Assembly: GCA_009780015.1 (NCBI GenBank)
Contig: WRAW01000002.1
Span: 12-64,011, forward strand
Reading direction: 5' to 3'
Source: Defluviitaleaceae bacterium
GTDB lineage: Bacteria > Bacillota > Clostridia > Lachnospirales > WRAA01
DNA length: 64,000 nt
Every line of letters starts with the position of its first letter. Position 1 is the stretch's first letter. A program made the translations under genes and the position numbers. This document shows, in pieces, positions 2,738-39,709 of the stretch. The notes beneath the pieces are model-generated. The model had not been told where the DNA came from, did no database searches, and saw nothing but the letters and a program-made list of their open reading frames with translations.

Positions 2738-2765
2738 TTATTGAAAAACGATTGGAGTGCGGTTC

Positions 2766-4529: not shown

Positions 4530-4551
4530 CTAAGTGATAGGGGTGCAGTTC

Positions 4552-6282
4552 ATGAAAAGAATTGGTTATGGATTTTGTCTGATATTGGCGCTTGTTGTCA
4601 TTGCTCTTTTGTTGACGGCTTGCGGGGATGAGCAGTCAAACGGCGATGAGTATGTTACGGACATATCGGAAGACGCGGAAGATACGGTATACACGCCGGA
4701 GGAAGGCTATGAATCTGCCGTCGAAGATACATTGTTTATCGACATTCTGGAGCAAATCGAACGTCAGACGCGAGTTGATGAAATGCTTCTTGCCGAACTG
4801 GACAGCGGCGCGTACAGCTTTGACGATCCGCTGGTGGTGCTCGACCCATATGGGATGTCGCCGCTTGCGGCTCTGGCGCTGTTTGTAAGCGACGAACCGA
4901 TGAATATTTCGGTCTATGTACCCGGACGGTCTGAGCTTACAAGCGTCTACTTTACCTTCGACGGCTACAATACAAGGCATGAAGTGCCGATTTATGGACT
5001 GCATCCAGATAAGCTGAACAGGGTGGAGCTTACCGGAAGAACACGCGGCGGCCAATTGCGGAGCGTTATGCTTGAGATACAGACCGATCCGCTGCCGCCG
5101 GAGCTGGCGCAGCACATCCTGATTACGGACTTAGTACAGCCTGAGAGCTATCAGCCCGGGTTTAATTTTACATTCTGGTATAAAACCGCGTTTGATAAGT
5201 ATGGCGAGTATAGATGGTTTTACAATAACTTTGATCTCCTGGTTACGACTCTGTACGATTATCATGGTCACATGCTGTTTGCGGCGGGCGCGGGACTGTT
5301 TACAGAAGGAGACGTTCTCATAATCGAAGCAAACATGCTGGGCAAGATACTGAACGTATACCATTCGCCTTACGGAGCATGTCACGATATCGCGGAAACT
5401 AGCGGGGGAAACTTGATTGTTACCGGAAACCGCGGGGATGTGGCGGAAGACTTTATTTATGAAATAGATGCGGAAACGGGCGAAATAGTTAACAGGCTTG
5501 ATTTGAAGCGTGTATTGCAAAGAACGCGTACATCCGGCTTCCCGGAACATAGTCCGTCCAATTGGTTTCATCATAACGCACTTGTATACTATAATGGAAG
5601 CATTATTGTTTCGGGAAGACATCAATCCGCTGTTGTAAAGCTTTCATGGCCTGATGGCGAAGTTGAATGGATATTGTCCGACCATTCTGGGTGGAATCCC
5701 ATGTTTCAAAGATATCTGCTCACTCCCATCGGCGGAGATTTCGGGTGGAGTTTTGGTCAGCACGCCCCCGTAGTCCTTCCAGACCTTGATAATGACCCGG
5801 ATACAATAGATATTTTGTTATTCGATAATGGCAACGGCAGATTTTACCTTGACAGGGAGCTTCAGCGGGCAATCAGGAACAATGAGGTCGCCATTCCCGA
5901 GAATTTTTCAAGGATGGTGCACTACCGAATAAATGAAAGAACTATGACAATTGAGCAGATCTGGCAGTTTGGTGAAGAATTGGGCGAAGCCTTCTTTGCC
6001 GAATTTATGAGCAGCGCCCAGCCGCTTGAAAACGGAAACAGGCTGGGGGCGTTCGACAGAAGAATATTTATTGACGAGGTTGGCGTTGGTTTTAGTACAA
6101 GCTTTGTTGAAGTTGATTCTTCGGGAAATATTGTTTGGGAAACGTACGCAACAAGTACTGACGGCGTAGGAACATTTAACACTTATCGCGCCGAACGCCG
6201 CCCGCTTTACACCGTAGCCGCCAACGATCTGCGCATCGGCGTACCGGCGAGGGTATTCATCCCAGAGGACAGGCTGCCGTGA
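4552..6282 (+). CDS. Aryl-sulfate sulfotransferase (ASST)-like lipoprotein, paralog 3
   Basis: Taken from ORF 4534..6282. It has a lipobox (LLLTAC-GD) and is co-linear with paralogs 1 and 2 over its whole length. Confidence 0.8.
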   Translation: MKRIGYGFCLILALVVIALLLTACGDEQSNGDEYVTDISEDAEDTVYTPEEGYESAVEDTLFIDILEQIERQTRVDEMLLAELDSGAYSFDDPLVVLDPYGMSPLAALALFVSDEPMNISVYVPGRSELTSVYFTFDGYNTRHEVPIYGLHPDKLNRVELTGRTRGGQLRSVMLEIQTDPLPPELAQHILITDLVQPESYQPGFNFTFWYKTAFDKYGEYRWFYNNFDLLVTTLYDYHGHMLFAAGAGLFTEGDVLIIEANMLGKILNVYHSPYGACHDIAETSGGNLIVTGNRGDVAEDFIYEIDAETGEIVNRLDLKRVLQRTRTSGFPEHSPSNWFHHNALVYYNGSIIVSGRHQSAVVKLSWPDGEVEWILSDHSGWNPMFQRYLLTPIGGDFGWSFGQHAPVVLPDLDNDPDTIDILLFDNGNGRFYLDRELQRAIRNNEVAIPENFSRMVHYRINERTMTIEQIWQFGEELGEAFFAEFMSSAQPLENGNRLGAFDRRIFIDEVGVGFSTSFVEVDSSGNIVWETYATSTDGVGTFNTYRAERRPLYTVAANDLRIGVPARVFIPEDRLP

Positions 6283-12544: not shown

Positions 12545-15500
12545 GTGGCTATGGACAGTAAGAACGCCGTATCGGCTACCTGGGACGAAGTTGCGAAGCA
12601 ATATTCCGTAACAATTGACGACGGTGAGTACGAGCTCGCAAACGACATCATTGCCGTACTAAAAAAACACGGAATTGCTCGGGGAAGCAGGCTGCTGGAA
12701 TTGGGCTGCGGAAGCGGGCATCTTTCCGCGTGTCTTAATATGGCCGGCTATCAAACCGACCTTTTGGATTTTAGTCCTGAATCACTGAAAAAGGCTAGTC
12801 AAACATTTGAACAATACGGGCTGCATGGAAACTTCATCCAAGGCGACATAATGCATCTTGACGCTTTCCAGGAAAATGACTACGACCTTGTATGGAACAG
12901 CGGGGTAATGGAGCATTTCGCGGACGACACCATATTTGAGGCATTTAGAAATATAAGGAAAATCGCGCGCCGAAGTATTTTTGTCGCAGTTCCCAATCCG
13001 ATATCGGTTTCTTATCTGCTGATGCGATATATACGCCAATCCCAGCAGGACTGGCCTTACGGAAGGGAGTACCTGCGGTCGGACTATGATAAAGCGATAA
13101 AAGCCGCCGGGTTTGAGGATGTATCGGTTTGTTACCTGGGGAAAGCGGCTACAGGGTATAATTTCTATTTTGCTATGAAGGACGCGGAATTTTGCGACTC
13201 CTATGCGGATATGTTGGAGCGTGGGTTGCTTCCCGAACATGAGAATTATCTTACAGGTTACTTTGCGTCTATTGCTTCCCGCAGATTATTGTCTGATGAA
13301 TTATCGGAGGATGCGCCTTCGTTTGACGCCGAATCCATAACCGGAATTTACGAATTGAACGCGGAACGCTACGGGCTTGCAAAGCAACTGAGCAAGGTAC
13401 GTGAAACGCTGGGTGAGGCCGCAGCGCGTGAGCAGGAGCATATTGCTAATATAGCGGAAACGGAATCAGAGCGCAAGAAACTCGAGAATGAATTGGAATA
13501 CGCAAATGCGGATTGCCGGCGACTCAGGAGCGAATTAGAAGACTCAAATATAGACCGTCAACAACTCAAGAACCAATTAGAAAGCTCAAATATATATCGT
13601 CAACAACTCAAGAGCCAATTAGAAAGCTCAAATATAGATCGTCAACAACTCAAGAGCCAATTAGAAAGCTCAAATATAGATCGTCAACAACTCAAGAGCC
13701 AATTAGAAAGCTCAAATATAGATCGTCAACAACTCAAGAGCCAATTAGAAAGTTCAAATATAGATCATCAACAACTCAAGTCCGAGCTGGAACATGCAGC
13801 TACAGAACATAATCAAGCTTTAAATAAGCTTGGGAACGAGTTGAAAATTACAAATACGGAACGTCTGCATCTCAGGGACAAGCTGGAAAGCGAACGAGGA
13901 AACGCTCAACAGATTATCATTAATGCCTTCAACGCAACAGACCGCCTGTTTAAAATGCGGATATTTAAGATGCTTCATCTGCTGAGCAGGATTATTAACC
14001 AGCTTATAAAGGGCGGGTGGGCTGAGAAAAAAGGCTTTTTCCGCTGGCTTTGCGCGCATATTATGCGCCGCCCGTACAGCGACAGGGGATATAACCCGCT
14101 TCAAATGATTACGGACGCTTTGAGCGGGGAGCATACACATTCAAAATATATTCAGACTTCTTACAAGGACGATTATAAATCCGAATATACTTCTACAAGC
14201 TCTGACAGCGATATTTCTGATGTAAGCAGTTGGGAATTCTTCGGCGCGGAGCCTCTTATATCGGTGATGATACCGGTTTACAACCATGCCGGGTTGATAA
14301 GCGCGGCTATTGATTCCGTACGCGATCAAACATACAGGAATTGGGAGCTTATAATCCTCGACGACGGGTCTGAAGATAATCTCGAAGAGGTCTTGGAGCA
14401 ATACTCCGGCGATCCTCGCATAAGCGTATACAAACAGAAGAATCAAAAACTCCCGACGGCGCTTACGCACCTTCACTCTCTTGCCAACGGTGAGTTTTTG
14501 ACCTGGACTTCGGCCGACAATATAATGCTGCCGGATATGCTGAAGGCGCTTGCTTCTTCGTTGCTTGAGAATATTGACTGCTCGTTAGTATACGCGGATG
14601 TAGCCGTAATTGACGAACATGGAGATTACTATACAGGCGAATATCGCGACAGGGAAAGAGACCCTGAAAGGCCATATATAATCAGATTGCCCAGGGACGC
14701 TTCGGCGCTGGGCGCCGAGCCCGACAACTTCATTAACGCCTGTTTTCTGTACAGAAGAGAGGCGTCCGGCGCGCTGGGGGGCAGATATTCCTCTGACCTG
14801 GAAGGACTGGAAGATTACGACTATTGGCTGCGCATGTCACGAACCGGGAAGGTAATGCATATTGGAAACAATGAACCCCTATACCTTTACAGAGTACACA
14901 AAAACACAATGAGTGAAGATTTATTGAAAAATAAGCAAGAGCAGCACTTTGCCAGAGCTAAGAAGCTGATTCGGTTTGAGGGGAAAAGGGCGGAATTTTC
15001 AAAGAAGCCTTGGCAGATTGAAATTAAGTGCGACAGTGTATCTCTTATGGTTGACAGCTATGTTTTCTCAGATAAGAAGATTGCAATATATTCGGATAAG
15101 AGCGATGTCGGGGAAACGGCAGGCACAGAGCTTCCTGTCGTTTATGACGGACATAATTTTAATATTACGTTTAAAAACACAAGCTTGAGCATCGCGACCG
15201 GGGCGAATGTTAATCCGTTGTGTGTAAAGGCGAGGTATATTAAGCCGGACTTACCGTATTGGGAGTATACGGCGATGGGCGGCAGGAAGGTTATAGGTAT
15301 TCATTCGGATATCGCGCTGATTAACGTCGATGAATTTTCAAAAATCATTTCCCGAAACGATGATTGCTTTTTTGTCCTTTGCGATACCTCCGACGGCTCC
15401 GATAAGGCGAAGCGGCTGGCTTCAAAATTCGAGAACTGTGTCTACGTAGGCAAGCGGGAATTAGGTGAGCCGTACTATATGTACTCTTCCTGGGATGCGA

Positions 15501-17017
15501 TAATGCTTCCCCCTGTTGAAAATGAGTTCGCAAAATATAATTTTGTCGAAGAACGGGTGCTTGCCTGGTCATGCGGTCTATGGCTTATGTACCCTGGAAG
15601 CTTGGTAAATTTTGAGGCCATGCCATGTTGCTGCGCGTATTATCAGAATGATAAGCTGCCCAAGGTATGGAAGTTTGCTTCTCCGCGCAGCAATGTGAAA
15701 CTGATTAACTCATATATCGATGAATTTTCAGTTGAAGGGAGAATCAGAAAGCTTTGCGGTTTGTGCAACGCCATTACCGAGGAACATTGGCTTGACAGAC
15801 CGCCATTCTCGAAATACGCCATACAAGAGGAGCTTCCCGCAAAAGTCGAAAAATATGCAAACAGCTTTATACCGGCAGGATATATCGGCTTTATGGTAGA
15901 TACCTTGGACAAGGGCGGTCTTGAGCAGGTAACTGCGCTTCTTGCGATTAGAATGAAGGACAGAGGGCTGCCCGTTAAAATTCTCTGCACATCGTCGGGC
16001 GGGGCCGTTGCGGATCAGGTTGCCGCCGACGGCATAGAGGTTGCTGTTTTTGACGGCGACAGGGATAGGATTGTAAGGTATTTGAAAGATAACGTTCCTG
16101 ATGTCATAAGCAGCCACTATGTTCAGAACTTCTACGATGTTCCCAGGTCGCTGGGTATTCCGGTTGTTGAAACTATTCATAACATGTACGCATATTTCGA
16201 TTACAATGACTGGAAGAGAGAAGCCGTTAGGTCTAAGTGCTTTGACGCTATGATAGCCGTTTCCGATACCGTCAAAGAATATTATCTCAGGCACAACCCT
16301 TCATATGGAAGAAATATAGAAGTCGTAGGCAACGCTGCGGACATCAGGAGAACCGGCAGCGAAACCGGACGCCTGTTCAGGCGGAGTTTTGATATTTTGC
16401 CGAATAAATTTGTATTCCTCAATGTAGCTTCGTTTGACGGAAGGAAGAATCATTTCGGGCTCTTGTCCGCGTTCGAGCAGTTCTATAAAGCCGTAGGCAA
16501 TGATGCTGTTCTGCTTATTGCGGGCAATATACTCGATAGTAAATACTACGGAAGAGTTATCGAATATATAGATACGCTACACTGCAAGAGCAATGTGGTC
16601 TGTCTTGACTATATAGATCGTATCGGGGAGGTATTGAACATGGCCGACGCGTTTGTAATACCTTCATTTATCGAGGGATGGAGTATTGCGGCCACAGAAG
16701 CCGCTTACGCGGGCTTACCTGTAATCCATAGCAATTGTGGCAGCGGCAGGGAGCTTTGCGGGCCTGATAATGAGTACGGTGCGCTCATTTCGCACCCTCT
16801 GGGCGGCCTGGAGAACATTAACCGGGAAAATATCAATTCAGCTATATATGAGGCGGAACAAAAAAATACACGTGAATTGGTAGACGCAATGGCCGTCATG
16901 TACAACAACAAGGAGATTTGGAGCAAGAAGCGGCCGTCTGTCCGAGCCCGCGCGCTATGCGAGTTTAATGTTGACAGAATGGTTGACGGATATCTTAGAG
17001 TGTTGGAGGCGAGATAA
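12545..17017 (+). CDS. Giant multidomain glycan-synthesis protein: class I SAM methyltransferase, tandem-repeat helical linker, GT2, uncharacterised domain, GT4
   Basis: The N-terminus has the SAM motif LELGCGSGHLS. The linker has six copies of a 14-aa repeat (QLESSNIDRQQLKS). The GT2 signature is ISVMIPVYNHAG..DQTYRNWELIILDDGSED, with DYDYWLRM further on. The C-terminal GT4 motif is EGWSIAATEAAYAGLPVI. Confidence 0.8.
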   Translation: MAMDSKNAVSATWDEVAKQYSVTIDDGEYELANDIIAVLKKHGIARGSRLLELGCGSGHLSACLNMAGYQTDLLDFSPESLKKASQTFEQYGLHGNFIQGDIMHLDAFQENDYDLVWNSGVMEHFADDTIFEAFRNIRKIARRSIFVAVPNPISVSYLLMRYIRQSQQDWPYGREYLRSDYDKAIKAAGFEDVSVCYLGKAATGYNFYFAMKDAEFCDSYADMLERGLLPEHENYLTGYFASIASRRLLSDELSEDAPSFDAESITGIYELNAERYGLAKQLSKVRETLGEAAAREQEHIANIAETESERKKLENELEYANADCRRLRSELEDSNIDRQQLKNQLESSNIYRQQLKSQLESSNIDRQQLKSQLESSNIDRQQLKSQLESSNIDRQQLKSQLESSNIDHQQLKSELEHAATEHNQALNKLGNELKITNTERLHLRDKLESERGNAQQIIINAFNATDRLFKMRIFKMLHLLSRIINQLIKGGWAEKKGFFRWLCAHIMRRPYSDRGYNPLQMITDALSGEHTHSKYIQTSYKDDYKSEYTSTSSDSDISDVSSWEFFGAEPLISVMIPVYNHAGLISAAIDSVRDQTYRNWELIILDDGSEDNLEEVLEQYSGDPRISVYKQKNQKLPTALTHLHSLANGEFLTWTSADNIMLPDMLKALASSLLENIDCSLVYADVAVIDEHGDYYTGEYRDRERDPERPYIIRLPRDASALGAEPDNFINACFLYRREASGALGGRYSSDLEGLEDYDYWLRMSRTGKVMHIGNNEPLYLYRVHKNTMSEDLLKNKQEQHFARAKKLIRFEGKRAEFSKKPWQIEIKCDSVSLMVDSYVFSDKKIAIYSDKSDVGETAGTELPVVYDGHNFNITFKNTSLSIATGANVNPLCVKARYIKPDLPYWEYTAMGGRKVIGIHSDIALINVDEFSKIISRNDDCFFVLCDTSDGSDKAKRLASKFENCVYVGKRELGEPYYMYSSWDAIMLPPVENEFAKYNFVEERVLAWSCGLWLMYPGSLVNFEAMPCCCAYYQNDKLPKVWKFASPRSNVKLINSYIDEFSVEGRIRKLCGLCNAITEEHWLDRPPFSKYAIQEELPAKVEKYANSFIPAGYIGFMVDTLDKGGLEQVTALLAIRMKDRGLPVKILCTSSGGAVADQVAADGIEVAVFDGDRDRIVRYLKDNVPDVISSHYVQNFYDVPRSLGIPVVETIHNMYAYFDYNDWKREAVRSKCFDAMIAVSDTVKEYYLRHNPSYGRNIEVVGNAADIRRTGSETGRLFRRSFDILPNKFVFLNVASFDGRKNHFGLLSAFEQFYKAVGNDAVLLIAGNILDSKYYGRVIEYIDTLHCKSNVVCLDYIDRIGEVLNMADAFVIPSFIEGWSIAATEAAYAGLPVIHSNCGSGRELCGPDNEYGALISHPLGGLENINRENINSAIYEAEQKNTRELVDAMAVMYNNKEIWSKKRPSVRARALCEFNVDRMVDGYLRVLEAR
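13532..13780 (+). repeat. Near-perfect 42-bp tandem repeat, about 6 units, in frame inside the 1490-aa gene
   Basis: The unit caacaactcaagagccaattagaaagctcaaatatagatcgt is repeated head to tail with very few substitutions. Confidence 0.9.
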
Positions 17018-17021
17018 GCTT

Positions 17022-18860
17022 ATGCTGAAAAGAATCCCCGATTTACGTCATAATTTGGCGTTTAATTGCATATTGCTGGCCTTGCTTGGCGTTATTACAG
17101 GGCTGCTGTCATTGCTGCTCGGAGCGTCTACGTTTGGCCTGCCAATGTTTGAGACATACTTCCACTCGCCGATGGTGATATTGCTTAACCTGCTGCCGCC
17201 CGTCGTCCTTATATTCCTGATGTATTTTGTAAGCGGGCGCGCGTGGGTGGCGTTTTCCTTTCCGTCGCTTGTGGTGCTGGGGCTTTCCGCGGTGCAGTTT
17301 TTCAAGGTTCAGATGCGGGGAGACGTGTTTGTGGCGTCCGACATTCCGCTTATGCGCGAGGCGTTCTATGTCGTCGGGGCGGAATTCCACCTGACTCTGC
17401 ACTGGGAGCTGGTTCTGACCATTGCGGCGTATATCTGCGGGGTCGTGTTCTGTGTGTTTGTGCTGAAGCGCGAAATAAGCAGGGTTTCGGCACGCGTCGC
17501 CGGGAGCGCCGTACTTGTAACCGTGGTCGTGCTGCTGTACTCGTTTGTTTACAGCGACGCGGGTCTTTATGACAGGACGGAGGGCGGCTACCCCGCCAGC
17601 CCGTGGTCGTTTTCGCAAAGATACATATCGCGGGGCTTCGTGTACCCGTTCATTCACAGCATCAGGTACGCTTTTCCGGCCGCGCCTGCCGGCTTCGACA
17701 GAGACGAGGCAAGGCGGATGCTTGCCGAGTTCGAGTGCGGCGTGATTCCAGACGACAAGAAGATCAATGTCATTACCGTCATGCTCGAGTCATACATGGA
17801 CCTCTCGGCGTTCGGCACGCTCGAGTTCCTTGTGGACGTATACGGCCCGCTGCACAGGCTGCAGGCAGAGTCGGTTTCCGGTATGCTTATAAACAACGTA
17901 ACCGTCGGCAAGACGATCGACACCGAACGCTTGTTCCTGACAGGGTATACCCGCCTGACCCGCTTTGGCCCCGCGGTCATAGACTATTGGCGCTATTTGG
18001 GGGCCGAACACTACAGCTCGGCGGTAAACTCCTACGTACACTACCTTAACTCGCAGGGCTTCCACACCGAAGGCTATACGGCCGCCGCGGGCTGGTTTTA
18101 CGACAGAGCCGCGGTCAACAGACACCTTGGCTTCGCTGAATATTTCTTCCTGGAAGACTTCGAGAACAGCGACCAAACCGACGAATTCTTCTTTGATACG
18201 GTAATGGCGCTGTATCAGGCCCGCGACAGGGGCACACCCTATTTCAGCTTCAACCTCTCGGCCCAGAACCACGGCCCCTACGACAGCGCCGACACGACCG
18301 AGCCGCACAAGATCGCCCGGGGCGACCTGTCCTTCGAGGCTTTCAACATTCTCAACAATTACCTTACCGGAATCTACGACACCACCTGGCGTCTTGAAAG
18401 CTTCATAAACCAACTGCGCTACGATCCCGATCCGGTGGTCGTGCTTGTCGCGGGCGACCACACGCCATGGATGGGCAACGACGGCTTCGTATACGCCGAG
18501 CTTGGAATAAACGTTGACGAGACCACGCCCGAAGGCTTCCTGAATCTTTATTCAACGCCATACTTCATATGGGCCAACTACGCCGCGAGAGCCGTCATCG
18601 GAAACGACACATCCGGCTACGGAGGCAGCTTTTCGCCCAGCTTCCTGATGGGCAAGCTCTTCGGCGTCATCGGGTGGGACGGCGAAGCCTATATGCAAGC
18701 TCTCGCCGAACTCAAAACCCAGGTCAGCGTCATAAGCGCCCCCACCGGAATGTTCCGCGAACACGGCGTACTGACGCCCGCCCTCTCTCCTGAGGCGCAA
18801 GCCTCCTACAACCGGCTGCGAATGATGGAATTCTACAGACTGCACAATTTTGCGCATTAA
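17022..18860 (+). CDS. LTA synthase / sulfatase-like family membrane protein (phosphoglycerol or sugar-phosphate transferase type)
   Basis: It has about five N-terminal transmembrane helices followed by an extracellular alkaline-phosphatase-superfamily domain (INVITVMLESYMD, VLVAGDHTPW). The ATG at 17022 follows the stop of the upstream gene. Confidence 0.65.
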   Translation: MLKRIPDLRHNLAFNCILLALLGVITGLLSLLLGASTFGLPMFETYFHSPMVILLNLLPPVVLIFLMYFVSGRAWVAFSFPSLVVLGLSAVQFFKVQMRGDVFVASDIPLMREAFYVVGAEFHLTLHWELVLTIAAYICGVVFCVFVLKREISRVSARVAGSAVLVTVVVLLYSFVYSDAGLYDRTEGGYPASPWSFSQRYISRGFVYPFIHSIRYAFPAAPAGFDRDEARRMLAEFECGVIPDDKKINVITVMLESYMDLSAFGTLEFLVDVYGPLHRLQAESVSGMLINNVTVGKTIDTERLFLTGYTRLTRFGPAVIDYWRYLGAEHYSSAVNSYVHYLNSQGFHTEGYTAAAGWFYDRAAVNRHLGFAEYFFLEDFENSDQTDEFFFDTVMALYQARDRGTPYFSFNLSAQNHGPYDSADTTEPHKIARGDLSFEAFNILNNYLTGIYDTTWRLESFINQLRYDPDPVVVLVAGDHTPWMGNDGFVYAELGINVDETTPEGFLNLYSTPYFIWANYAARAVIGNDTSGYGGSFSPSFLMGKLFGVIGWDGEAYMQALAELKTQVSVISAPTGMFREHGVLTPALSPEAQASYNRLRMMEFYRLHNFAH

Positions 18861-18959: not shown

Positions 18960-19118
18960 AGTAGAAGGCAACTATATCTGACCCAATGATACATACCGAC
19001 AGCATCGATTATGACACAATTTGTAAACAAGCTTGTAACTCTATTAAACAAGGGGGATAGGGCAGGTAGTATTTTTGTATTTCAAAATAATTCAAATTGC
19101 AGGGAGGTTATGGTAATA

Positions 19119-20597
19119 ATGAGAAGAAGCAGAGCAAACAAGCTGATAGCCGTCTTCACAACAATGACGATGCTGTTGTCAAGCTTTGTTATGCCGGTTT
19201 CCGTCTTTGCGGATCAACTCAACGGCGGTAATGGCGTCTATAGTGACTATGACGATTATGGTGACTATGGTGCCAATGGCGAAAATGATGCCAACGGCGA
19301 AAACGGCATTAACGGTGAAAACGGTGTTAATGGCGAAAACGGCGTCAACGGTGAATATGGCGTTAACGGCGAAAATGGTGCCAATGGTGAAAACGGCGTC
19401 AACGGCGAAAATGGCACCAATGGCACCAATGGCGAAAACGGCGTCAATGGCGAAAACGGCGAAGCAATCCTGCCAGACTACGACGACCAACTTCCGCCAA
19501 GCGTGGACGGTGGTACAGAGTCCAGGTTTGCTGAACCCGAAATCGTCAATGTAGCGCTGGGAACTTCACTGGAGCATGTACAAGAGCTCCTGTTGGAATT
19601 GTTCCCATATGTAATTGTAGTGAACCCCTATAACTTGGTGCTTACTGTCGATATTTCGCGGTGGGATAACCCGGACTACGACCCGGAATTGTCGGAAGTT
19701 GGCGACAGCTACGTCTTTACCGCGGTTGAGTACGTCGTAAGCGGCGGCGAATACCCGGAAATGCAGCCTCCGTCTGTTGTGGTGGAGATTGTGGAACCGG
19801 TGGGGATTATGCCGCTGACCCTAGCTACTCCGACCGTTACACGGGTATCACAAGGTGCGGGAACAAATGCCCGGATAGCTTTCTGGCCCGAAGTAACAAA
19901 TGCAGTAAGCTACACCATGTATATCTATGCCCGTCCGATAGGCGCTGGTGCGGTAAGTAACGCACCCAATCCGCCGGAGAGAGTTGCCGTGCTGCGAAAT
20001 ATAGCGCCTGGAACCAGGATGTTGGCTGACCCGCATGCTGTAACTGCTGTCAATACTCTTAACGCTATGAACGCTGCTACAGTAGCAATTGACATAAGGT
20101 TTGCGACATTTGAGCCGTATGGTGGTAATAACGACTTTTTGGCGATTCCGAGGCGTCATGACTTCCCGTCAGGAGCTCTTCCGAGAACCGATGCCGCACT
20201 CGCGGTAGCCGGCGAACCATTGCTCGGAGCTCAAAGTCACGGCAACCTTATCCCCGGCGCATACTGGGTTAGCGTCGAGGCGGTTGCCGCAGATATGTCG
20301 GATAATTCAGTCCCAAGCGCAATACAAGCTTTAAATGCTTCGTTCATAATAGGCGCCGGCCCTACCGACGCTCGGCTGATGATGGAAGCAACGGGCATCA
20401 CCAGCAGAAACCCGGATGCTCAAGACTTTGTCGTTGTTGATGTTCGTCCCTTGGCCGAGCGCAACGCTGAAGCTATATTCATGTTTACGTTGAATGAAAG
20501 AAATGGCTTAGTCCTCCCAGCAGTTGCTGCTGCTACTTCTGAAGCTATTCTGAATCAACATTTCCCTGATTATGACGAACTTATCCTGCTCTACTGA
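19119..20597 (+). CDS. Secreted surface protein, segment 1: signal peptide, NGENGV repeats, FN3-like module and the N-terminal two-thirds of a rhodanese-like domain. It ends at an in-frame UGA.
   Basis: Taken from ORF 19011..20597. The signal peptide is [31 protein letters not shown]. The segment ends in ...[13 protein letters not shown]...ELILLY-TGA, which is exactly where rhodanese has its catalytic Cys. Confidence 0.75.
19269..19463 (+). repeat. 18-bp tandem repeat, about 11 units, encoding (N-G-E-N-G-V/A/I/T)n
   Basis: It gives the protein run [63 protein letters not shown]. The units differ mostly at synonymous third codon positions. Confidence 0.9.
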
Positions 20598-20633
20598 CGG
20601 GGTGCGGGACGCAGTTTAACTGCAGCTCTCCGG

Positions 20634-21896
20634 ATGGCAGAGATGGGATATACACGAGCAATTGACTTCCAAGGCGTTAATCAGTGGATATATGGCAGGA
20701 TGTTTGACGACCCCGATGGCGACTACTATGGCTGGTTTAACTTTAGCGCTCTTAACCCCAGTCGGGTAGGGGATGAACTTAGGTGGACAAACGCTCCAGG
20801 CGCGGAAGGCTTTAGAGTGTTTGCTTATGACGGCGACCCCGCGAGCGGCGGCACGCAAGTAGCGTACGTAGATCTTCCAGGGGGGCCGGTAACAACAACC
20901 GGTGCTAATTCAGGAAATTCCGGAAGCTTGGTACCAGCGTCAGGTAGCACCCTAAGGTATTTTGTAGGCTATGATATTGTAACCGGCCAGCTCAGATTTT
21001 ACCCGACTGGTGCGGCCAACGTAAATAATATGGACTTTGTACAAGGCACCTTCGACTCAATCGTCGACGAGCTTACTGATCCGGGTGTATACCATTTCCG
21101 CATCCAGGCCATATCCAGCCTGAATCCGCGGCCGGTGGCCGGATTACCGGGCGTACACTGGGGCCAGGACTCGCAGCGTTTCACCGCTACGGGCGCCCCG
21201 TTTGTGGTTCCCGAAGCAGCGCCGGACAAATTCCTGAACAGAGGAACGGCGGCGGTGGGTGGCTTCCCGCTTGGTCTTTCGTGGACAGCGGTTCCGGGAG
21301 CGTATAGATATACGGTATACGCTTTCGACGATGAAAGCGAAGACAACCCACTTCTGGCGGCAAGATATGTTGATGATATAGACGCGCTGTCGCTTGACGT
21401 AAGAACCTATTTAAATCGTGATCCCAATCCATACACTGCGTTCAGCGCTCCATACTGGTTCCGCGTACGGGCGTATGACAGCAACGGCCTTGCCGTCAAC
21501 GATATAAGCGAACCTATGGGGCCGTGGTCGTATTGGTCTGAAACCAGTCCGCACGACAGAGCTGACCTCAATTGGGAACAAAGATTGGCGATGTACAATC
21601 AGACGGGCGCGAACGCCAACATTCCGTTTGTTATGATTGATATACGCAACTGGACTACTGAGCGTTCGCAGGGGCATGTCGCAGGAAGTTTATGGGCTCC
21701 ATGGCATAACTGGACAGATGCCGTAACTGCCGCCCATGCCGCGCTTAATCCTCCCATCGCTCAGGCCACGCCAGCTACTTTCCAGGAGCACGTCTTTACC
21801 GCGGTAGCCGTAGCTTTGGATAACCTGACTCCGCAGGAAAGGCTATGGTTGGACGGGCAGCCCGGAGATAATTACATTCGCGTATTCCTGTACTGA
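20634..21896 (+). CDS. Surface protein, segment 2, in the same frame as segment 1: rest of rhodanese domain 1, FN3-like modules and most of rhodanese domain 2. It also ends at an in-frame UGA.
   Basis: There is no Shine-Dalgarno sequence and no signal peptide. Codons 20598-20633 are open and read RGAGRSLTAALR, which is the rhodanese active-site loop. The C-terminus reads FVMIDIRNWTTERSQGHVAGSLWAP...NYIRVFLY-TGA. Confidence 0.7.
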   Translation: MAEMGYTRAIDFQGVNQWIYGRMFDDPDGDYYGWFNFSALNPSRVGDELRWTNAPGAEGFRVFAYDGDPASGGTQVAYVDLPGGPVTTTGANSGNSGSLVPASGSTLRYFVGYDIVTGQLRFYPTGAANVNNMDFVQGTFDSIVDELTDPGVYHFRIQAISSLNPRPVAGLPGVHWGQDSQRFTATGAPFVVPEAAPDKFLNRGTAAVGGFPLGLSWTAVPGAYRYTVYAFDDESEDNPLLAARYVDDIDALSLDVRTYLNRDPNPYTAFSAPYWFRVRAYDSNGLAVNDISEPMGPWSYWSETSPHDRADLNWEQRLAMYNQTGANANIPFVMIDIRNWTTERSQGHVAGSLWAPWHNWTDAVTAAHAALNPPIAQATPATFQEHVFTAVAVALDNLTPQERLWLDGQPGDNYIRVFLY

Positions 21897-21941
21897 GCGG
21901 GCGGCGGCAGAACTGTACCTGCCACAGTCGCAGTTGCGACA

Positions 21942-23384
21942 ATGGGATTCCCGAATGTACACGATTTCTGGGGACACAACCAGTTAGGCCCCGCGGGCTT
22001 CCCGTTTGAGGGACGCCGCGTTGCGGATACCCCGACACCGATGATATTCAACGACGTTGTTACGTGGCCGGAAGTAGATGTTCAGGGCACACACGGCGGC
22101 TACACCGTATTTGCCTTTAGAAGCGCGACGGAAACTAATGTGAACAACGCGTATGCGTATGCTCATACAGACGACACTACGTTCAATGTGCTTACCGATT
22201 TTAACCCGCCGCTACCGACGGAAACATTCTTCTTCCGTGTTCAGGCCATGGGTACCGATTTAGCCCCAAATGCTGATTTCCTGATCTGGAACGCTCATCT
22301 TCCTTCGGAGCTCAGCGAAAGAGCGATATCTCCTCCGTACGAAGACCCTGACCCTGACCCTGCTCCGCCTGCCGTCCATCCGGCCCCTCCGTCCGGCGGA
22401 AGACCAAGTCCTCCGGTGACGGCGCCTCCGCGTGACCCCGCCGCAGTTGCTCCAACGCCTCCGAGCCAGCAGGCGAATATGCCGGTCGGCAGCGCGGTTA
22501 TGGGTACGGATCAGACGGCCGAGATCATATTCCATGCACTAACAGCGGGCGATCCTGTAGTGATCTCGTTGCCGAACAACACGCGCTACGCGGACTTCCA
22601 GTCCAGCGACATCGCGGCTCTTGCTTACCGCGGGGATGACCTCTCGGTTGAACGCGCTGGTGTACGCATTATCGTACCCGGGGACGTTCTCGCAGAGATT
22701 TCTCCGGCAAACCTCCAGACATTCCGCATTGAGATCGGTTCCGTATCCGACGCTCTTGTAGATGCCGTCGGAGATGTAGATCAGGGCGACCTCCTGAGCG
22801 TATTCTATGTTAACATTATTGTAAACGGAAGCGGTGTCGGCGATCTGAACGCGCCCGTCGTGATATCCCTTGATGCCGCGCAATTCGGTGTCACAGCGGC
22901 TACTTACGGCGTAACAGGCGCACGTGTCAACGCGGGCGGAAGCTTCAGCTTGCTGGGTGGCAGCCTGAGCCAAGGCCGCTTCGAGTTCATCACCGACAGC
23001 CTGAGCTCTTACGCCCTGCTTAGCGGAGTCACGTTCACAAGCCTCGCGTTCACCGTCGATACCGCGAGCTTTGCGCTCAACGGCGCGAGCCAGGGTCTTG
23101 ACGTAGCTCCGACCATCATCAACGGCCGCACGATGGTTCCGGTACGCGCAATTGCGGAAGGACTAGGCGCCAACGTCGTCTGGAACGAAGCCGCAAGCGC
23201 CATTTCGATAGATCTCGGCGAAACTTCAGTCGAGCTCGCTATCGGCGTCCTTGCCCCAGGTATGGATGTCCCTGCGACTATCGTCGACGGCAGAGCTCTC
23301 GTTCCGCTTAGATTTATCTCAGAACAACTCGGCGCCAGTGTCGTCTGGAACTCCAGAGACCAAGGCATCGGTATTTACAGATAA
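21942..23384 (+). CDS. Surface protein, segment 3, in the same frame: rest of rhodanese domain 2, FN3-like module, Pro-rich linker and a C-terminal copper-amine-oxidase-N (stalk) wall-associated domain
   Basis: There is no Shine-Dalgarno sequence and no signal peptide. Codons 21897-21941 are open and read AGGGRTVPATVAVAT. The C-terminus has NGRTMVPVRAIAEGLGANVVWNE and DGRALVPLRFISEQLGASVVWNS. Confidence 0.7.
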   Translation: MGFPNVHDFWGHNQLGPAGFPFEGRRVADTPTPMIFNDVVTWPEVDVQGTHGGYTVFAFRSATETNVNNAYAYAHTDDTTFNVLTDFNPPLPTETFFFRVQAMGTDLAPNADFLIWNAHLPSELSERAISPPYEDPDPDPAPPAVHPAPPSGGRPSPPVTAPPRDPAAVAPTPPSQQANMPVGSAVMGTDQTAEIIFHALTAGDPVVISLPNNTRYADFQSSDIAALAYRGDDLSVERAGVRIIVPGDVLAEISPANLQTFRIEIGSVSDALVDAVGDVDQGDLLSVFYVNIIVNGSGVGDLNAPVVISLDAAQFGVTAATYGVTGARVNAGGSFSLLGGSLSQGRFEFITDSLSSYALLSGVTFTSLAFTVDTASFALNGASQGLDVAPTIINGRTMVPVRAIAEGLGANVVWNEAASAISIDLGETSVELAIGVLAPGMDVPATIVDGRALVPLRFISEQLGASVVWNSRDQGIGIYR

Positions 23385-32452: not shown

Positions 32453-35170
32453 GTGGTGCAGCAACTTACATGGGATGCCATACAATCAAATGCGATAGCC
32501 TTTTCAAAGAAATGGCAAAAAGCCAAAAATGAAGAAGCGGAAGCGCAAGGTTTCCAGCTTGATTTTCTGCGTATCTTTGGTGTAGACGAGCCTATGGCTG
32601 TTGGAGATTTTGAGTATAGGGTTCCGCTTGCCGGCGGCAGAACTGGCTATATAGATTATGTTTGGAAAAGCAAAATTGCTATTGAGATGAAGAGCCGCGG
32701 CAAGAGTCTTGATGAAGCCTTTACGCAGCTGCAAAACTATATGCAGAATCTTCCCACTGATGAAATCCCCGACCTGTGGATGGTCTGTGATTTTGAAAAC
32801 ATAAGGCTTTGCCGCCGATCCACAAATGAGATATGGAACTTCAAAACCAAAGACCTTCGCAAGCATATCAAACGCTTTGCCGACATTGCAGGCTATGAGA
32901 CCGAGCGCGACAAAGGCGAACAGATAGAAGTCAACGTAAAGGCCGCCGAAAAAATGGCCAAGCTATATGACGCGCTAAGAGACCACGGCTATGAGGGACA
33001 AGAGCTTGAGGTTTACTTGGTGCGTTTACTATTTTGTTTGTTTGCTGACGATACAGGTATCTTCCCCAAGGATAGTCTTTACAATTATTTTGAACGATCC
33101 AAGGCGGACGGAAGCGATCTAACCCACCGCATCGCCGACCTCTTTGAAGTTCTAAATATGTCCGAAGATATTCGCGCTAAGAAGTCGCTGCTTTCTGACG
33201 AACTAAAGCAATTCCGCTACATAAACGGCAAGCTATTCGCCGACAGACTGCCCCCTGCCGACTTCAACGCCAAGATGAGGCAAACTCTTTTGGAGTGCCT
33301 TAATTTCAATTGGAACAAGATAAGCCCTGCCATCTTCGGCGCCATGTTCCAAGGTGTTATGAACAAGTCGAAGCGCAGAGAAATGGGAGCGCACTATACA
33401 AGCGAAGAAAATATCGAAAAGCTAATCAACCCCTTGTTCATGGATGAACTTTGGAAAGATTTCGACAAGGTAAAGACCGATCCTGCCGCTCTTGACCGCT
33501 TTCACGACAAAATATCTAGGCTAAAATTTCTTGACCCTGCCTGCGGCTGCGGAAATTTCCTTATAGTCACCTATGGCAAGCTGAGGGAGCTTGAGCTTGA
33601 AATTCTAAAAATGAAAGCCGGCACAAACCAGCTTATAATAGACATCACGCCAATGTTGAAAGTAAGCGTGGAGCAGTTTTATGGTATAGAACTTGAAGAA
33701 TTTGCTTGCCAAATAGCTCAGGTTGGTATGTGGCTTATTGACCACCAAATGAATTTGCGTGTGTCAGAACAGTTCGGTATGTATTTTGCCAGGCTGCCTC
33801 TATCACAGGGGGCAGTCATCGTACACGGCAACGCCCTGCGGTTGGATTGGGAGAGCATCGTCTCCAAGCACGAACTTTCGTATATACTAGGCAATCCGCC
33901 GTTTGTTGGATTGTCACTGCGCAATACTCAGCAACAAGAGGATATGGATATTGTTTTCAAATATAACGAAAGAGCGGGGCGATTGGATTATGTTGCCGCA
34001 TGGTATAAAAAGGCGTCCAACTTTGTGCGAAATACCTTCATTGAAGTTGCTTTCGTATCCACCAATAGCATTACCCAAGGCGAACAAGTCCCCATTTTGT
34101 GGAGTGGCATGAAAGAGAGTGAATCAGAAATAAACTTCGCCCATCGCACATTTATCTGGAGCAACGAAGCCAAGGGAAAAGCAGCCGTCCATTGTGTCAT
34201 CATAGGATTCTCTCAACGCAACCACAAAGTAAAGCGATTGTTTGAGTACGATTATGAAGGCGAATTAGTAGTACATGAAGTTAAGCACATCAATGGCTAT
34301 CTAGTTGCAGCCGAAAATGTGTTTGTTGAGTTGCGCGGAAAAGCAAGAGTGGGGTTTCCAAAACTAGTTCAAGGAAGCAAACCTTGGGACGGAGGATTTC
34401 TAATACTGTCAGAAGAGGAAAGACAAGAGTTGCTGCGAAAATATCCTGAAACATCGGCGTTTATTAAGCAATATGTAGGTTCTCAGGAATTTATAAATAG
34501 CACGAAGAGATATTGCCTGTGGCTTCAAAACGTACCTCCTACTGCATATCGAAATATTCCTGACATTATGGAACGTTTGGACGGCGTGAGAAAGATTAGG
34601 CGAAAGACAAAGACTGTAGCAGTACAAAAACAAGCGGATATACCAATGCTTTTTTCGCAAATTCGTCAACCTACAACAAACTATTTGCTTGTTCCCGAAA
34701 CTTCATCTGAAAATAGGCGCTATATCCCGATAGGTTTTATGCCGCCAGATATTATAGCGAGCAATGCAACTCTTGTCGCTGAAAACGCTACGCTTTATCA
34801 CTTTGGGATTCTAACATCAAATGTACATATGGCATGGACTCGGACTGTGTGCGGAAGGCTGAAAAGCGATTACCGTTATTCGCCATCGATCTACAACAAC
34901 TTTCCTTGGCCAGAGGCAAACAACAAACATCAGGCAGAAATCGAGAAGTTGGCGCAATCCATATTGGGCGCAAGGGCAAGCTACCCTGAAAGCTCCCTAG
35001 CCGATCTCTATGACCCTCTAACCATGCCGCCAGACCTGCTAAAAGCCCACCAAAACCTCGACCGTGCCGTGATGAAGCTGTACGGCTTCCCCGTCAAGAA
35101 TTTCACCGAGGCGGATTGTGTGGGGGCGTTGATGGGGCTGTATCGGGAATTGATAGACAGAGGGGAATAG
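32453..35170 (+). CDS. MmeI-family type IIL (fused endonuclease, N6-adenine methyltransferase and specificity domain) restriction-modification enzyme
   Basis: The N-terminus has a PD-(D/E)xK-like D-x9-E-x-K motif (IDYVWKSKIAIEMK). A FLDPACGCGNF SAM motif and an NPPF catalytic motif (LGNPPFVG) are present. The length of 905 aa and the domain order match MmeI-like enzymes. Confidence 0.8.
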   Translation: MVQQLTWDAIQSNAIAFSKKWQKAKNEEAEAQGFQLDFLRIFGVDEPMAVGDFEYRVPLAGGRTGYIDYVWKSKIAIEMKSRGKSLDEAFTQLQNYMQNLPTDEIPDLWMVCDFENIRLCRRSTNEIWNFKTKDLRKHIKRFADIAGYETERDKGEQIEVNVKAAEKMAKLYDALRDHGYEGQELEVYLVRLLFCLFADDTGIFPKDSLYNYFERSKADGSDLTHRIADLFEVLNMSEDIRAKKSLLSDELKQFRYINGKLFADRLPPADFNAKMRQTLLECLNFNWNKISPAIFGAMFQGVMNKSKRREMGAHYTSEENIEKLINPLFMDELWKDFDKVKTDPAALDRFHDKISRLKFLDPACGCGNFLIVTYGKLRELELEILKMKAGTNQLIIDITPMLKVSVEQFYGIELEEFACQIAQVGMWLIDHQMNLRVSEQFGMYFARLPLSQGAVIVHGNALRLDWESIVSKHELSYILGNPPFVGLSLRNTQQQEDMDIVFKYNERAGRLDYVAAWYKKASNFVRNTFIEVAFVSTNSITQGEQVPILWSGMKESESEINFAHRTFIWSNEAKGKAAVHCVIIGFSQRNHKVKRLFEYDYEGELVVHEVKHINGYLVAAENVFVELRGKARVGFPKLVQGSKPWDGGFLILSEEERQELLRKYPETSAFIKQYVGSQEFINSTKRYCLWLQNVPPTAYRNIPDIMERLDGVRKIRRKTKTVAVQKQADIPMLFSQIRQPTTNYLLVPETSSENRRYIPIGFMPPDIIASNATLVAENATLYHFGILTSNVHMAWTRTVCGRLKSDYRYSPSIYNNFPWPEANNKHQAEIEKLAQSILGARASYPESSLADLYDPLTMPPDLLKAHQNLDRAVMKLYGFPVKNFTEADCVGALMGLYRELIDRGE

Positions 35171-35241
35171 CGAAAAATTAAATAATATTATTGACAAACT
35201 ATATTTTCATGTGTGAATATATTACGAAGAGGTGTATTGGG

Positions 35242-36120
35242 ATGGATATAAGTGAAAGACAACCAACATATAAGCGACAACGTTTTTTGCTAACGTTTCT
35301 ACGGCAGCTTAACGGGGATATAACGGCCACAAATTTACAGAAATTAGTTTTTATGTACACTATGGCAGAAGATCCAATACACTATGATTTTGTTCCATAT
35401 AAGTTCGGTGCATACTCATTTCAACTTGAAGAGGATTTAAGTATACTCCAGCGCGACGGTTACGTGTCAATTAGCGTTGACTCAAAGCGTAGGCAGATTA
35501 AAGCACTTGGCAAATACGATCAAAAGCCCTCGTTTGTGATTTGTCCAGAGCGCGGTGATGATCTAATCCGCAAAACATATCAAAAATATCCATACTTCAC
35601 TATAAACAGTGAAATACTTGGGCGCATATTCAATAAAGCTGAATCGGAACAATATTTGATCGAAAGACAAAGTTACATCAACGAAAATCAAGTTTTATTT
35701 ACAATTGGGTATGAAGGCAAGAGCATTGAGAGTTTTGTAAATACACTAATACGCAATGGGATACGTAAGTTGTGTGATGTTCGTAAAAACCCGCTAAGTC
35801 GAAAGTTTGGATTTTCCAAAGGAAAGCTGCAACATATAATGGAAACAGTCAACATTGAGTATGAGCATTTACCGGAATTAGGCATTAAATCGGATAAACG
35901 TACTTTCCTGGAAATGCCAGAAGACTATGAAGCTTTGTTTGAAGAATATGCTAAAATGATGCCTAAACTTGAATCAGAGCTTGAGAAGCTGTATGCATTT
36001 TTTAATTTTAATAAGCGTATAGCTTTAATGTGTTATGAATTAGAACCAAAAATGTGCCATCGACATGTCATCAAAGATTGGTTAGTTAGTAAATTTTTGA
36101 TAAAGGGCAAGGACTTATGA
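35242..36120 (+). CDS. Fusion protein: N-terminal winged-helix/Panacea(DUF4065)-like region plus a C-terminal DUF488 domain
   Basis: The C-terminus carries DUF488 hallmarks (FTIGYEGKSIESFV..L...GI..L.DVR..P.SRK.GFSK..L...........Y.HLPELG...MCYE..P..CHRH.I). The N-terminal segment LQKLVFMY....YDFVPYKFGAYS resembles DUF4065. Its stop overlaps the start of the next gene (ATGA). Confidence 0.65.
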   Translation: MDISERQPTYKRQRFLLTFLRQLNGDITATNLQKLVFMYTMAEDPIHYDFVPYKFGAYSFQLEEDLSILQRDGYVSISVDSKRRQIKALGKYDQKPSFVICPERGDDLIRKTYQKYPYFTINSEILGRIFNKAESEQYLIERQSYINENQVLFTIGYEGKSIESFVNTLIRNGIRKLCDVRKNPLSRKFGFSKGKLQHIMETVNIEYEHLPELGIKSDKRTFLEMPEDYEALFEEYAKMMPKLESELEKLYAFFNFNKRIALMCYELEPKMCHRHVIKDWLVSKFLIKGKDL

Positions 36121-36953: not shown

Positions 36954-37049
36954 TTATAGTATGCTGACTACCCAATCAAGATTAAACACAAATGCGAACA
37001 CCTCTCCGACGAAAAAACATCGGCTAGGGTTCGCATTAGTTTCTAATTC

Positions 37050-37137
37050 CGGAAGCGGTGGGATTCGAACCCACGGTACCCGCAAAGGTACACCTGATTT
37101 CGAGTCAGGCCCGTTATAGCCACTTCGATACGCTTCC
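37050..37137 (-). tRNA. tRNA-Ser (anticodon CGA)
   Basis: The reverse complement folds as a cloverleaf: acceptor GGAAGCG/CGCTTCC, anticodon loop CU-CGA-AA, long variable arm and T-arm GGTTCGAATCC. CCA is not encoded. Confidence 0.9.
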
Positions 37138-37285
37138 ATATGTGTCACTTATAATGCGCCAAACTGCTTTAACATGCTTGATTAATACAGGCACTTAGAC
37201 ATGATACATTAACTATCGAGAAAAGTCAATATATTTGTTATCGGGAGGGCGTTGCATTAATTATCCTCTTTTTATTACCCATAAC

Positions 37286-38712: not shown

Positions 38713-39050
38713 ATGGATAACGAACTCAAAACAAATACCATCTTTCTTTATTCCGAAGGGGAGTACCAAATCTGTAAAAAAGGCTAGAGAAAGGCATGTA
38801 AGGAATGTGAAGAAAATATATGCCGAACAAAGAATTGCCGGGATTAAACCAAAGAAACGAGGCCGCAAACATGGAAATCAAAGGGATATATCTTTGGAGC
38901 AAGAAAGACAAATCCCAAATATCATTGTAGACAAATGTCCCGAGCAATTAAAGCTCCCTGGATATATGTGTACAAGAGCGGGTATAAGGAATTTAATAAA
39001 GCGCATGTGTGGACTTGACATACAATTATCCAAATTTGGGGTTAGGGTGC
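38713..39050 (+). pseudogene. IS630-family transposase remnant: N-terminal HTH region only, frameshifted and truncated
   Basis: The segment ..VKKIYAEQRIAGIKPKKRGRKHG..LSLEQERQI..IIVDKCPEQLKLPGYMCTRAGIRNLIKRMCGLDIQLS matches the IS630 N-terminal pattern (GL.pk.rGr......L...q...I......P.qL.l....WT...v..lI....G...s). No DDE domain follows. The upstream ATG at 38713 is in a different frame. Confidence 0.6.
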
Positions 39051-39063
39051 AAGCGTCAAAAAA

Positions 39064-39104
39064 GCGGCGGCCATATACTTTACGGTATGGCCGCCTTTAT
39101 TTGT
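39064..39104. terminator. Bidirectional intrinsic terminator
   Basis: The 10-bp stem is ggcggccata/tatggccgcc. It is flanked by an A-run on the left and tttatttgttt on the right. It lies just downstream of the minus-strand gene 39113..39577. Confidence 0.6.
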
Positions 39105-39112
39105 TTGAAGTT

Positions 39113-39577
39113 CTAATACCTACCTTTGATTATAAAGAAAGACCCGCGAATCTCCCCCGCGATTTTTGACTTTTGCCGCGCGAATTTGAATTTCTTCTCC
39201 AGTTCGGCAGGTACTTCCATCCCCATAGAAAGTTTAAGGCCGACGGCGCTCTTGGCGTCGTTTTCCAGAGCGTACATTATATTTATCCCAAGACCGTCCT
39301 CGTAATAAACATAGGTTATTTTAGCGCTTTCTATTACAAATTGCGAAGTCTCCAAGGGTTTTGCCGCAAACTCAATATCCCGTTCTTCTTTCAGAATCCT
39401 GTTTACATATTCCATAATTTCAGGCGTCTCATCGGCCGGCTTGGTAGTAAATGCGTGTCTGTGCTTGTTCATATAGTAACGCGCTTCGTTGGCACGCAGC
39501 CCGGCAAGGGCTTTTGCCACCGGCGAAGATTCCAGTCCAACCGTGGATACTTTCTCAAAATTAACTACGTATGACAT
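39113..39577 (-). CDS. Hypothetical protein (154 aa)
   Basis: It is an open frame with a GGGAGG ribosome-binding site upstream of the ATG, and it runs divergent to addB. I recognise no domain. Confidence 0.5.
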   Translation of the reverse strand: MSYVVNFEKVSTVGLESSPVAKALAGLRANEARYYMNKHRHAFTTKPADETPEIMEYVNRILKEERDIEFAAKPLETSQFVIESAKITYVYYEDGLGINIMYALENDAKSAVGLKLSMGMEVPAELEKKFKFARQKSKIAGEIRGSFFIIKGRY

Positions 39578-39709
39578 TGCTGCCGCCTCCCGTACTTATC
39601 AATGCAGTATATCATATGTTCTTTTAAATTCTCAATAACAATTTCTAAAAGATGCCGCTGGTCTAAAATAGTGTTGAAAAATGCATATGTCTTGGAGTAT
39701 AATTGGATT

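Follow-up and report, generated by a model that had tools for sequence, protein, structure and literature searches.

How are two TGA codons decoded when each interrupts a long reading frame exactly at the catalytic codon of a rhodanese domain? This question is raised by a 64,000-nt stretch of contig WRAW01000002.1 from the Defluviitaleaceae bacterium assembly GCA_009780015.1 (hereafter, the window), in which three consecutive open reading frames (ORFs) on the forward strand together encode a predicted large exported protein with two rhodanese domains. The analysis presented below indicates that both UGA codons are very probably recoded to selenocysteine (Sec), and that the window gene is a divergent member of a family whose proteins carry either Sec or Cys at the rhodanese active site.

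A single frame with TGA at two catalytic codons

The three ORFs (19011..20597, 20634..21896, and 21942..23384) share one frame in the ORF listing, and translation of 19011-23384 reveals two internal stops, both of them TGA, at 20595-20597 and 21894-21896. The read-through coding sequence (19119..23384) encodes 1421 amino acids with U at residues 493 and 926, terminates with TAA at 23382-23384 and, as translated from 19119, contains zero Cys residues. A Shine-Dalgarno (SD) sequence, AGGGAGG (19101..19107), can be read upstream of the ATG codons at 19110 and 19119, the second of which is also chosen by the gene caller on other assemblies of this locus (L001). Inspection of the sequence upstream of ATG 20634 and ATG 21942 found nothing resembling an SD sequence, and both the SD sequence and the signal peptide are confined to the first of the three ORFs. 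The codons for the active-site loops (RGAGRS and AGGGRT, respectively) follow the TGAs but precede the next possible start codons; therefore, no conventional gene model encodes either loop.

UGA-1 (20595..20597) occupies the catalytic position of rhodanese 1 (20352..20720; DVR ... ELILLY-U-RGAGRS ... QGVNQW), and UGA-2 (21894..21896) that of rhodanese 2 (21564..22013; DIR ... IRVFLY-U-AGGGRT ... WGHNQ), which has a long insertion; we read them as putative selenocysteines 493 and 926, respectively. With Cys substituted at the TGAs, the two domains match PF00581 with 22.3 and 22.4 bits, the cutoff being 22.2, and both are placed in the alignment of rhodanese units from the whole family (A3), which has invariant D-x-R, C/U, and G-R positions and structural Gly/Phe columns. 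In a PDB search made with domain 1 only, the catalytic Cys residues of 6mxv and 2k0z align to UGA-1. For two nonsense codons to hit both catalytic codons in a frame of 1421 codons by chance, the probability is of the order of 1e-6. The sequence-only reading of this locus, which had described a single frame broken by two TGAs in place of the active-site Cys of both domains, downstream segments without SD sequences or signal peptides of their own, and a double hit very unlikely to be accidental, is borne out on all of these points, the catalytic position being confirmed by PF00581 and A3 for both domains and by the PDB structures for domain 1.

Elsewhere in the window, which has a GC content of 49.5%, UGA serves as a normal stop codon, as had also been claimed. 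The stops of its 44 long ORFs comprise 17 TAA, 14 TAG, and 13 TGA codons; TGA terminates 11 long ORFs besides those at issue, usually with another stop close behind, and the EtfA-like and GlcD-like genes, which end in TGA, fit their family profiles up to the last positions. Genome-wide reassignment of UGA is ruled out, because TGA ends these other ORFs and the conserved proteins among them stop where their profiles stop. A six-frame scan of the window found shadow frames only, and no other credible gene with in-frame TGAs. One apparent further case was rejected, namely two ORFs at 38807-39601 that lie in frame with addB (39602-43039) and are split from it by TGAs only; they are low-complexity junk and form a chance look-alike, the AddB profile beginning at residue 37 of addB's own ORF.

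Homologues of the cysteine type and the probable selenocysteine type

Word-indexed homologue searches were almost blind to this family, one of them returning the protein P0001 alone and another three generic rhodaneses. An exhaustive HMMER search with the core of P0001 as query yielded 91 matches, which are representatives at 50% clustering and to which the counts of representatives given here refer. P0001 itself has a signal peptide and SLH domains, and aligns unbroken across both UGAs of the window protein with Cys at each (E = 2e-17 and, for rhodanese 2, 4e-07); homologues with Cys at both UGA positions, for which the sequence-only reading had called, do therefore exist. About 11 representatives (P0001-P0008, P0011, P0027, and P0030) are Cys forms with the motif V-T-I-F-V-[YFLM]-C-R-G-G-G-R-[STA], and the Cys-form loci L013 and L018-L024 use TGC at the catalytic codon. 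In comparison with the window domains, the Cys homologues score 24.6-34.8 bits against PF00581.

Many of the remaining matches look like pieces of genes cut at the catalytic codon: 6 representatives end at the residue preceding the Cys, a further 22 end on the same hydrophobic strand (…AVTIFVY, …EVTILLY, …EITLVVY), and 16 start just past the catalytic position, although the apparent Sec:Cys ratio is inflated by such counting, since each multi-Sec gene contributes several fragments. Inspection of the DNA of 8 Sec-type loci from at least 5 different metagenomes shows that the interrupting codon is TGA at 14 out of 14 sites. Downstream sequence is available for 13 of these (the L053 contig stops at its TGA); in each, the frame remains open and read-through restores a Gly-rich active-site loop. 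Ten of the loops read U-RGGGR[ST], that of window site 2 is U-AGGGRT, and two in L012 have the divergent sequences U-GGGGAR and U-GGGVRT. The inferred number of Sec residues per protein ranges from one (L007, L049, and L052) through two (L011, 1454 aa) to three (L012, 1609 aa; L050, 1650 aa), and the Sec-type proteins of 1454-1650 aa show no other frame disruptions. The possibility that close homologues are encoded as three genuinely separate genes is contradicted by the TGA at the catalytic codon of all 8 Sec-type loci. By these comparisons, this is a predicted Sec/Cys family of the kind recognised among selenoproteins. The two-Sec wall protein proposed in the sequence-only reading is supported as such, but it is not a one-off, being a divergent member of a family with one to three Sec residues.

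Scans of genomes and metagenomes with sequence patterns returned Cys forms and generic single-domain rhodaneses only, an outcome set by the peptide pattern chosen. For the fold, the AlphaFold 2 (AF2) model of P0001 has a predicted local distance difference test score (pLDDT) of 77, and of about 80-85 in the rhodanese domain, where it shows the alpha/beta rhodanese fold; Foldseek matches this model to SseA (1urh), PRF (5ve5), 6mxv, and bovine TST at probabilities of 0.98-1.0, and to SLH domains as well, the rhodanese and SLH folds being in this way established on the homologue and not on the window protein.

Two variants of the catalytic site deserve mention. The full-length protein P0026 (763 aa) has Asp at the catalytic position (VTVMVY-D-RGGANS), and its module is presumably a catalytically inactive rhodanese. 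In L012, positions 1824 and 4293 lie in divergent rhodanese-like Sec domains (…LIFTH-U-GGGGARS… and …LVLLY-U-GGGVRT…) that have no GVNQW tail, which suggests a second putative Sec subfamily inside one protein.

Downstream hairpins and the decoding of UGA

Bacterial Sec insertion is directed by a hairpin downstream of the UGA, the selenocysteine insertion sequence (SECIS), and candidate hairpins follow both UGAs of the window gene. Hairpin 1 (20598..20632, forward strand) combines a lower stem CGGGG (20598-20602)/CUCCG (20628-20632) with an upper stem GCAGU (20611-20615)/ACUGC (20619-20623) and a UUA loop, in the register of the family hairpin (i+j=46). Hairpin 2 (21906..21923, forward strand; GGCAG-aacUGUac-CUGCC) has its 5' arm starting 12 nt past the U of UGA and G22-U23 in the apical loop. 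Most sites of the family share a common register, with an upper stem at nt 14-20/26-32 and a lower stem at nt 4-8/39-43 that leave G22-U23 of a Val codon in the apical loop. The pairing of this model reaches 74% in the Sec forms vs 26-47% in slid registers, and its upper helix is paired to 76% in Sec forms vs 47% in Cys forms.

A geometry test, which required an uninterrupted hairpin of at least 4 bp whose apical loop falls between nt 18 and 30 from the UGA, found such a hairpin at 9 of 10 Sec sites (each stem having 5 bp or more; mean -8.1 kcal/mol) vs 3 of 7 Cys forms (mean -2.3 kcal/mol); the difference corresponds to a one-sided Mann-Whitney p of 0.01, and combining the p values against synonymous recoding by Fisher's method gives 1.2e-6 for the Sec sites and 0.82 for the Cys forms, with parameters fixed after viewing the sequences and with sequences that are related to each other. 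The Sec forms reach the shared register through codon choice. For the same peptide, the stem codons of Sec forms are CGA/CGC for Arg and CUC for Leu, whereas those of Cys forms are AGG/AGA and CUG/UUG; a C directly after the UGA, from the Arg codons CGA/CGG, is found in 7 of 9 core Sec sites, whereas 6 of 7 Cys forms use AGG/AGA for this Arg. In E. coli, UGA-C is the leakiest of the stop contexts. As a separate observation, the TGC gene L019 keeps a 7-bp hairpin (CCGUGUC/GGCACGG) at 2998-3045 in the same register as in the Sec-form L007, and may represent a fossil SECIS from a recent Sec-to-Cys switch.

A number of points weigh against selenocysteine at this locus. Besides the late choice of parameters and the relatedness of the sequences in the geometry test, the two window hairpins are individually non-significant: hairpin 1 has p = 0.24 against synonymous recoding and an apical loop without G, and hairpin 2 (-8.4 kcal/mol) has p = 0.06. 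Plain folding energy over the 48 nt after the UGA is nearly equal in the two classes (-16.5 kcal/mol for Sec vs -16.4 kcal/mol for Cys), folding Z-scores at the window sites are unremarkable, covariation under the two-stem hairpin model is not significant, and no Rfam SECIS match was obtained, the permissive threshold included. Neither the 64-kb window nor the adjoining 10 kb contains selA, selB, selD, or tRNA-Sec; low efficiency is expected for two or three SelB-dependent insertions in one chain; the window rhodaneses lie barely above the Pfam threshold; and we infer export, wall anchoring, trimerisation, and sulfur-transfer chemistry alike. Altogether, the SECIS evidence is consistent with recoding and supportive at the level of the family, and unproven at individual sites.

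Among the alternatives, the one that fares best is still improbable, namely that the UGAs are decoded as an amino acid other than Sec, either as Cys via tRNA-Cys(UCA) or via a selC-like tRNA with a SelB-like factor, or through near-cognate or suppressor read-through. For some anaerobes, recoding of UGA to Cys at specific sites has been proposed, the homologues carry Cys at this position, Sec machinery is absent from the window and the 10 kb beyond, and the inserted amino acid cannot be told from sequence alone. Generic suppression, however, would not keep to one codon position over 14 sites, and TGA terminates other genes normally; for Cys insertion, TGC would be the simpler solution and is the one used by the sister genes. 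Furthermore, Sec/Cys pairs have as their accepted signature an alternation of TGA and TGC at a catalytic redox residue together with a hairpin downstream (PMC13188914).

Ordinary termination at both UGAs, in a decaying pseudogene or in three separate genes, is more improbable still. Automatic gene callers do give three ORFs, the second and third segments start with ATG, and there are no Sec genes nearby; yet both stops would have hit a catalytic codon against a chance of the order of 1e-6, the most conserved motif of the family (G-G-R-S/T) would fall into untranslated spacers, and the second and third segments would have to be expressed without SD sequence or signal peptide. The frame and the similarity at the protein level run on past each TGA, and TGA recurs at the same position in eight loci of several metagenomes, whose proteins of 1454-1650 aa are otherwise free of frame disruptions. 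Finally, a sequencing or assembly artefact that hides TGC or TGT codons has a negligible probability: the identical DNA, TGAs included, occurs in ENA ERZ27257297 (contig k141_3025941, 136.7 kb), JGI 3300010369, and Logan SRR5215140, which possibly derive from the same reads, but two identical position-specific errors are implausible, and TGA stands at the same codon in independent homologues from the samples 3300010167, 3300009826, 3300027864, 3300027904, ERZ27257340/344/345, and SRR5247065.

Under the preferred reading, recoding of both UGAs to selenocysteine, each UGA would be decoded by SelB with Sec-tRNA(Sec), directed by a bacterial SECIS hairpin starting about 10-15 nt downstream and aided by the weak terminator context UGA-C or UGA-G. 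The chain, free of Cys, would then be exported through the secretory translocon by its N-terminal signal peptide and held on the cell wall by its C-terminal Cu_amine_oxidN1 domain, a part presumably played by SLH or LysM in relatives, while the N-terminal collagen-like G-x-y stretch may trimerise the protein. In the rhodaneses exposed at the surface, the selenolate within the six-residue loop U-R/A-G-A/G-G-R-S/T would act as the nucleophile that takes sulfane sulfur (or selenium) from thiosulfate, polysulfide, or persulfide and passes it on via an Se-S intermediate. A loop of six residues is typical of sulfurtransferase-type rhodaneses and not of phosphatases. Sec would provide higher nucleophilicity and resistance to irreversible over-oxidation at the micro-oxic gut periphery, and under selenium scarcity termination at UGA-1 would release an unanchored fragment of 492 aa.

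Architecture, known systems, and genomic surroundings

The predicted order of domains in the window protein is a signal peptide, a collagen-like stalk, an unknown region, a beta-sandwich, Sec-rhodanese 1, two beta-sandwiches, Sec-rhodanese 2, a beta-sandwich, a Pro-rich linker, a second unknown region, and Cu_amine_oxidN1, all encoded on the forward strand. The signal peptide (19119..19211), of the general secretory type with 31 residues followed by DQ after cleavage, was assigned by inspection, and the N-termini of homologues are similar. The collagen-like repeat (19224..19466; Pfam Collagen, 36.6 bits) comprises about 27 G-x-y triplets (GEN-GVN...), has weak NCBIfam matches to the Scl/Lcl collagen-like adhesins, and is a possible trimeric stalk. 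The putative beta-sandwich modules of the immunoglobulin/FN3-like class, whose fold class is predicted, are located before rhodanese 1 (19821..20351, aligning with module A of P0001), between the rhodaneses (two modules, 20724..21554, aligning with module B), and after rhodanese 2 (22014..22331, aligning with module B). The Pro-rich linker (22332..22472), evident from the translation, is followed by a region of unknown fold (22473..23042) with no Pfam match, and by the Cu_amine_oxidN1 domain (23043..23381; PF07833, 87.4 bits), which we take as the wall-binding anchor; the C-terminal wall-binding modules of relatives are SLH, LysM, or Cu_amine_oxidN1. Of the extracellular modules named in the sequence-only reading, the copper-amine-oxidase-N wall domain is confirmed by this score, and for the FN3-like units a beta-sandwich is plausible from the strands in the AF2 model of P0001 and a weak He_PIG match, but a family-level match to FN3 was not obtained. 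The product is a predicted exported and wall-associated protein of about 150 kDa that is possibly trimeric. No NCBIfam model recognises the rhodanese domain of this family, for which the NCBIfam search gave weak PspE profile matches.

Rhodaneses with Sec at the catalytic position are a known predicted type. Five Sec-rhodanese forms have been listed in a 2026 review, of which forms 2 and 4 are each a 'rhodanese-related sulfurtransferase' with the motif UxxG and one Sec (PMC13188914), assigned to PF00581/COG0607 and predicted from sequence only (PMC13188914, PMC9312934). The window protein resembles them in that Sec stands in for the catalytic Cys in a rhodanese of the PspE/GlpE type and that Cys homologues exist. 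The UxxG motif fits site 2 (U-A-G-G) and the relatives (URGG), but site 1 reads U-R-G-A-G (UxGxG), its fourth residue being Ala instead of Gly. Unlike forms 2 and 4, which are listed as simple rhodanese-domain proteins with one Sec, the window protein has two Sec (relatives, one to three) and extends over 1421 aa with signal peptide, collagen-like repeat, beta-sandwiches, and wall anchor. A family-specific GVNQW..DDPxFRFR extension is a further distinction, the family being set apart from forms 2 and 4 (reference accessions MBM9537886.1 and MCY3690685.1) by the descriptions of the latter.

Other comparisons concern location, Sec number, and habitat. PspE from E. coli and Sud, the polysulfide-sulfur transferase of Wolinella succinogenes, are likewise extracytoplasmic rhodaneses with a six-residue loop (C-x-x-G-x-R/S), and they carry sulfane sulfur on the catalytic residue; they are, however, small, soluble, single-domain proteins of the Gram-negative periplasm that use Cys, whereas the window protein would use Sec, comprise many domains, and be attached to the wall of a Gram-positive cell. 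TsoB (NF045694), a rhodanese/DsbD fusion-like protein with the motif UxxxxU, is another rhodanese-related bacterial selenoprotein with two Sec (PMC13188914), but both of them lie in one motif of a membrane DsbD fusion, whereas the window protein has one Sec in each of two separate rhodaneses; the NCBIfam search gave no match to NF045694. Termite-gut Treponema primitia is reported to have paralogous Sec and Cys formate dehydrogenases (PMC3892789), which resemble the present family in habitat and in the interchangeable Sec/Cys variants of one enzyme, and differ in being an unrelated, cytoplasmic enzyme with a single Sec.

The 119 prokaryotic selenoprotein (sub)families counted in the 2026 review mostly contain a single Sec, two or three being found in a small subset (PMC13188914). 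In the literature searched and in NCBIfam we found no multi-Sec, wall-anchored family of modular rhodaneses with signal peptides, and the literature search on S-layer or extracellular rhodanese selenoproteins returned nothing relevant. What appears new, then, is the multi-Sec, exported, and wall-anchored architecture and not the presence of Sec in a rhodanese; the claim of novelty made in the sequence-only reading concerned the former, which we did not find described, and the latter is already catalogued (PMC13188914). The broader proposition, that these proteins are the first recognised family of wall- or S-layer-anchored multi-Sec surface enzymes in Gram-positive bacteria, with tandem and mostly Sec-type rhodaneses, possibly confined to termite-gut Clostridia and serving an extracellular sulfane-sulfur/selenium relay, we regard as evenly balanced between true and false.

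To our knowledge, the bacterial selenoproteins described so far are, with few exceptions, redox enzymes of the cytoplasm or periplasm that contain one Sec. An exported, wall-anchored family with one to three catalytic Sec would bring selenium biochemistry to the Gram-positive surface, and one would have to ask how the cell manages several SelB-dependent insertions in a single chain; if true, it implies efficient decoding of two or three UGAs per chain followed by export of the selenoprotein. The natural series of Sec and Cys forms in one habitat would allow one to ask which advantage a rhodanese gains from Sec. Current annotation misses the family because gene callers split its genes at the UGAs into 2-4 fragments.

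The habitat is indicated by several sources. The exact window gene is present in IMG 3300010369, a metagenome of the P1 gut segment of the higher termite Labiotermes labralis, and the HMMER search found the family of wall-anchored rhodaneses with signal peptides in termite-gut metagenomes. One Cys form belongs to the metagenome-assembled genome (MAG) 'Clostridiales bacterium Nt197P3bin58', and another MAG of the Nt197P3 series has been reported from a termite-gut metagenome. The housekeeping genes in the window (Gram-positive AddB, PlsX, Pta-AckA, and EtfAB) are Firmicute-like. Its sole tRNA (37049-37138, reverse strand; 90 nt with a long variable arm) was considered as a candidate tRNA-Sec and rejected, being tRNA-Ser(CGA).

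The neighbours of the Sec-rhodanese gene are cell-envelope genes, including family 4 glycosyltransferases (GT4), Wzy_C, an SLH protein, a methyltransferase-GT2-GT4 fusion, and an LtaS-like protein of sulfatase fold. The fusion is a single 1490-aa ORF (12545-17017) that combines an S-adenosylmethionine-dependent methyltransferase with GT2 and GT4 glycosyltransferases, and it is adjoined by the gene for the 630-aa sulfatase-fold (LtaS-like) protein (16968-18860). Upstream of this envelope-glycan cluster, and about 13 kb from the Sec-rhodanese gene, there are three tandem paralogous arylsulfotransferase (ASST) genes (787-6282; PF05935, 215-222 bits each) with an Ig-like N domain, whose activity would be extracellular sulfate-ester chemistry; a link between them and the extracellular Sec-rhodanese is possible. 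Another part of the window (32453-35170) encodes a restriction-modification enzyme of the MmeI type (type IIL), which is complete and has all five Pfam domains of MmeI, and a gene for a DUF488 protein follows at 35191-36120.

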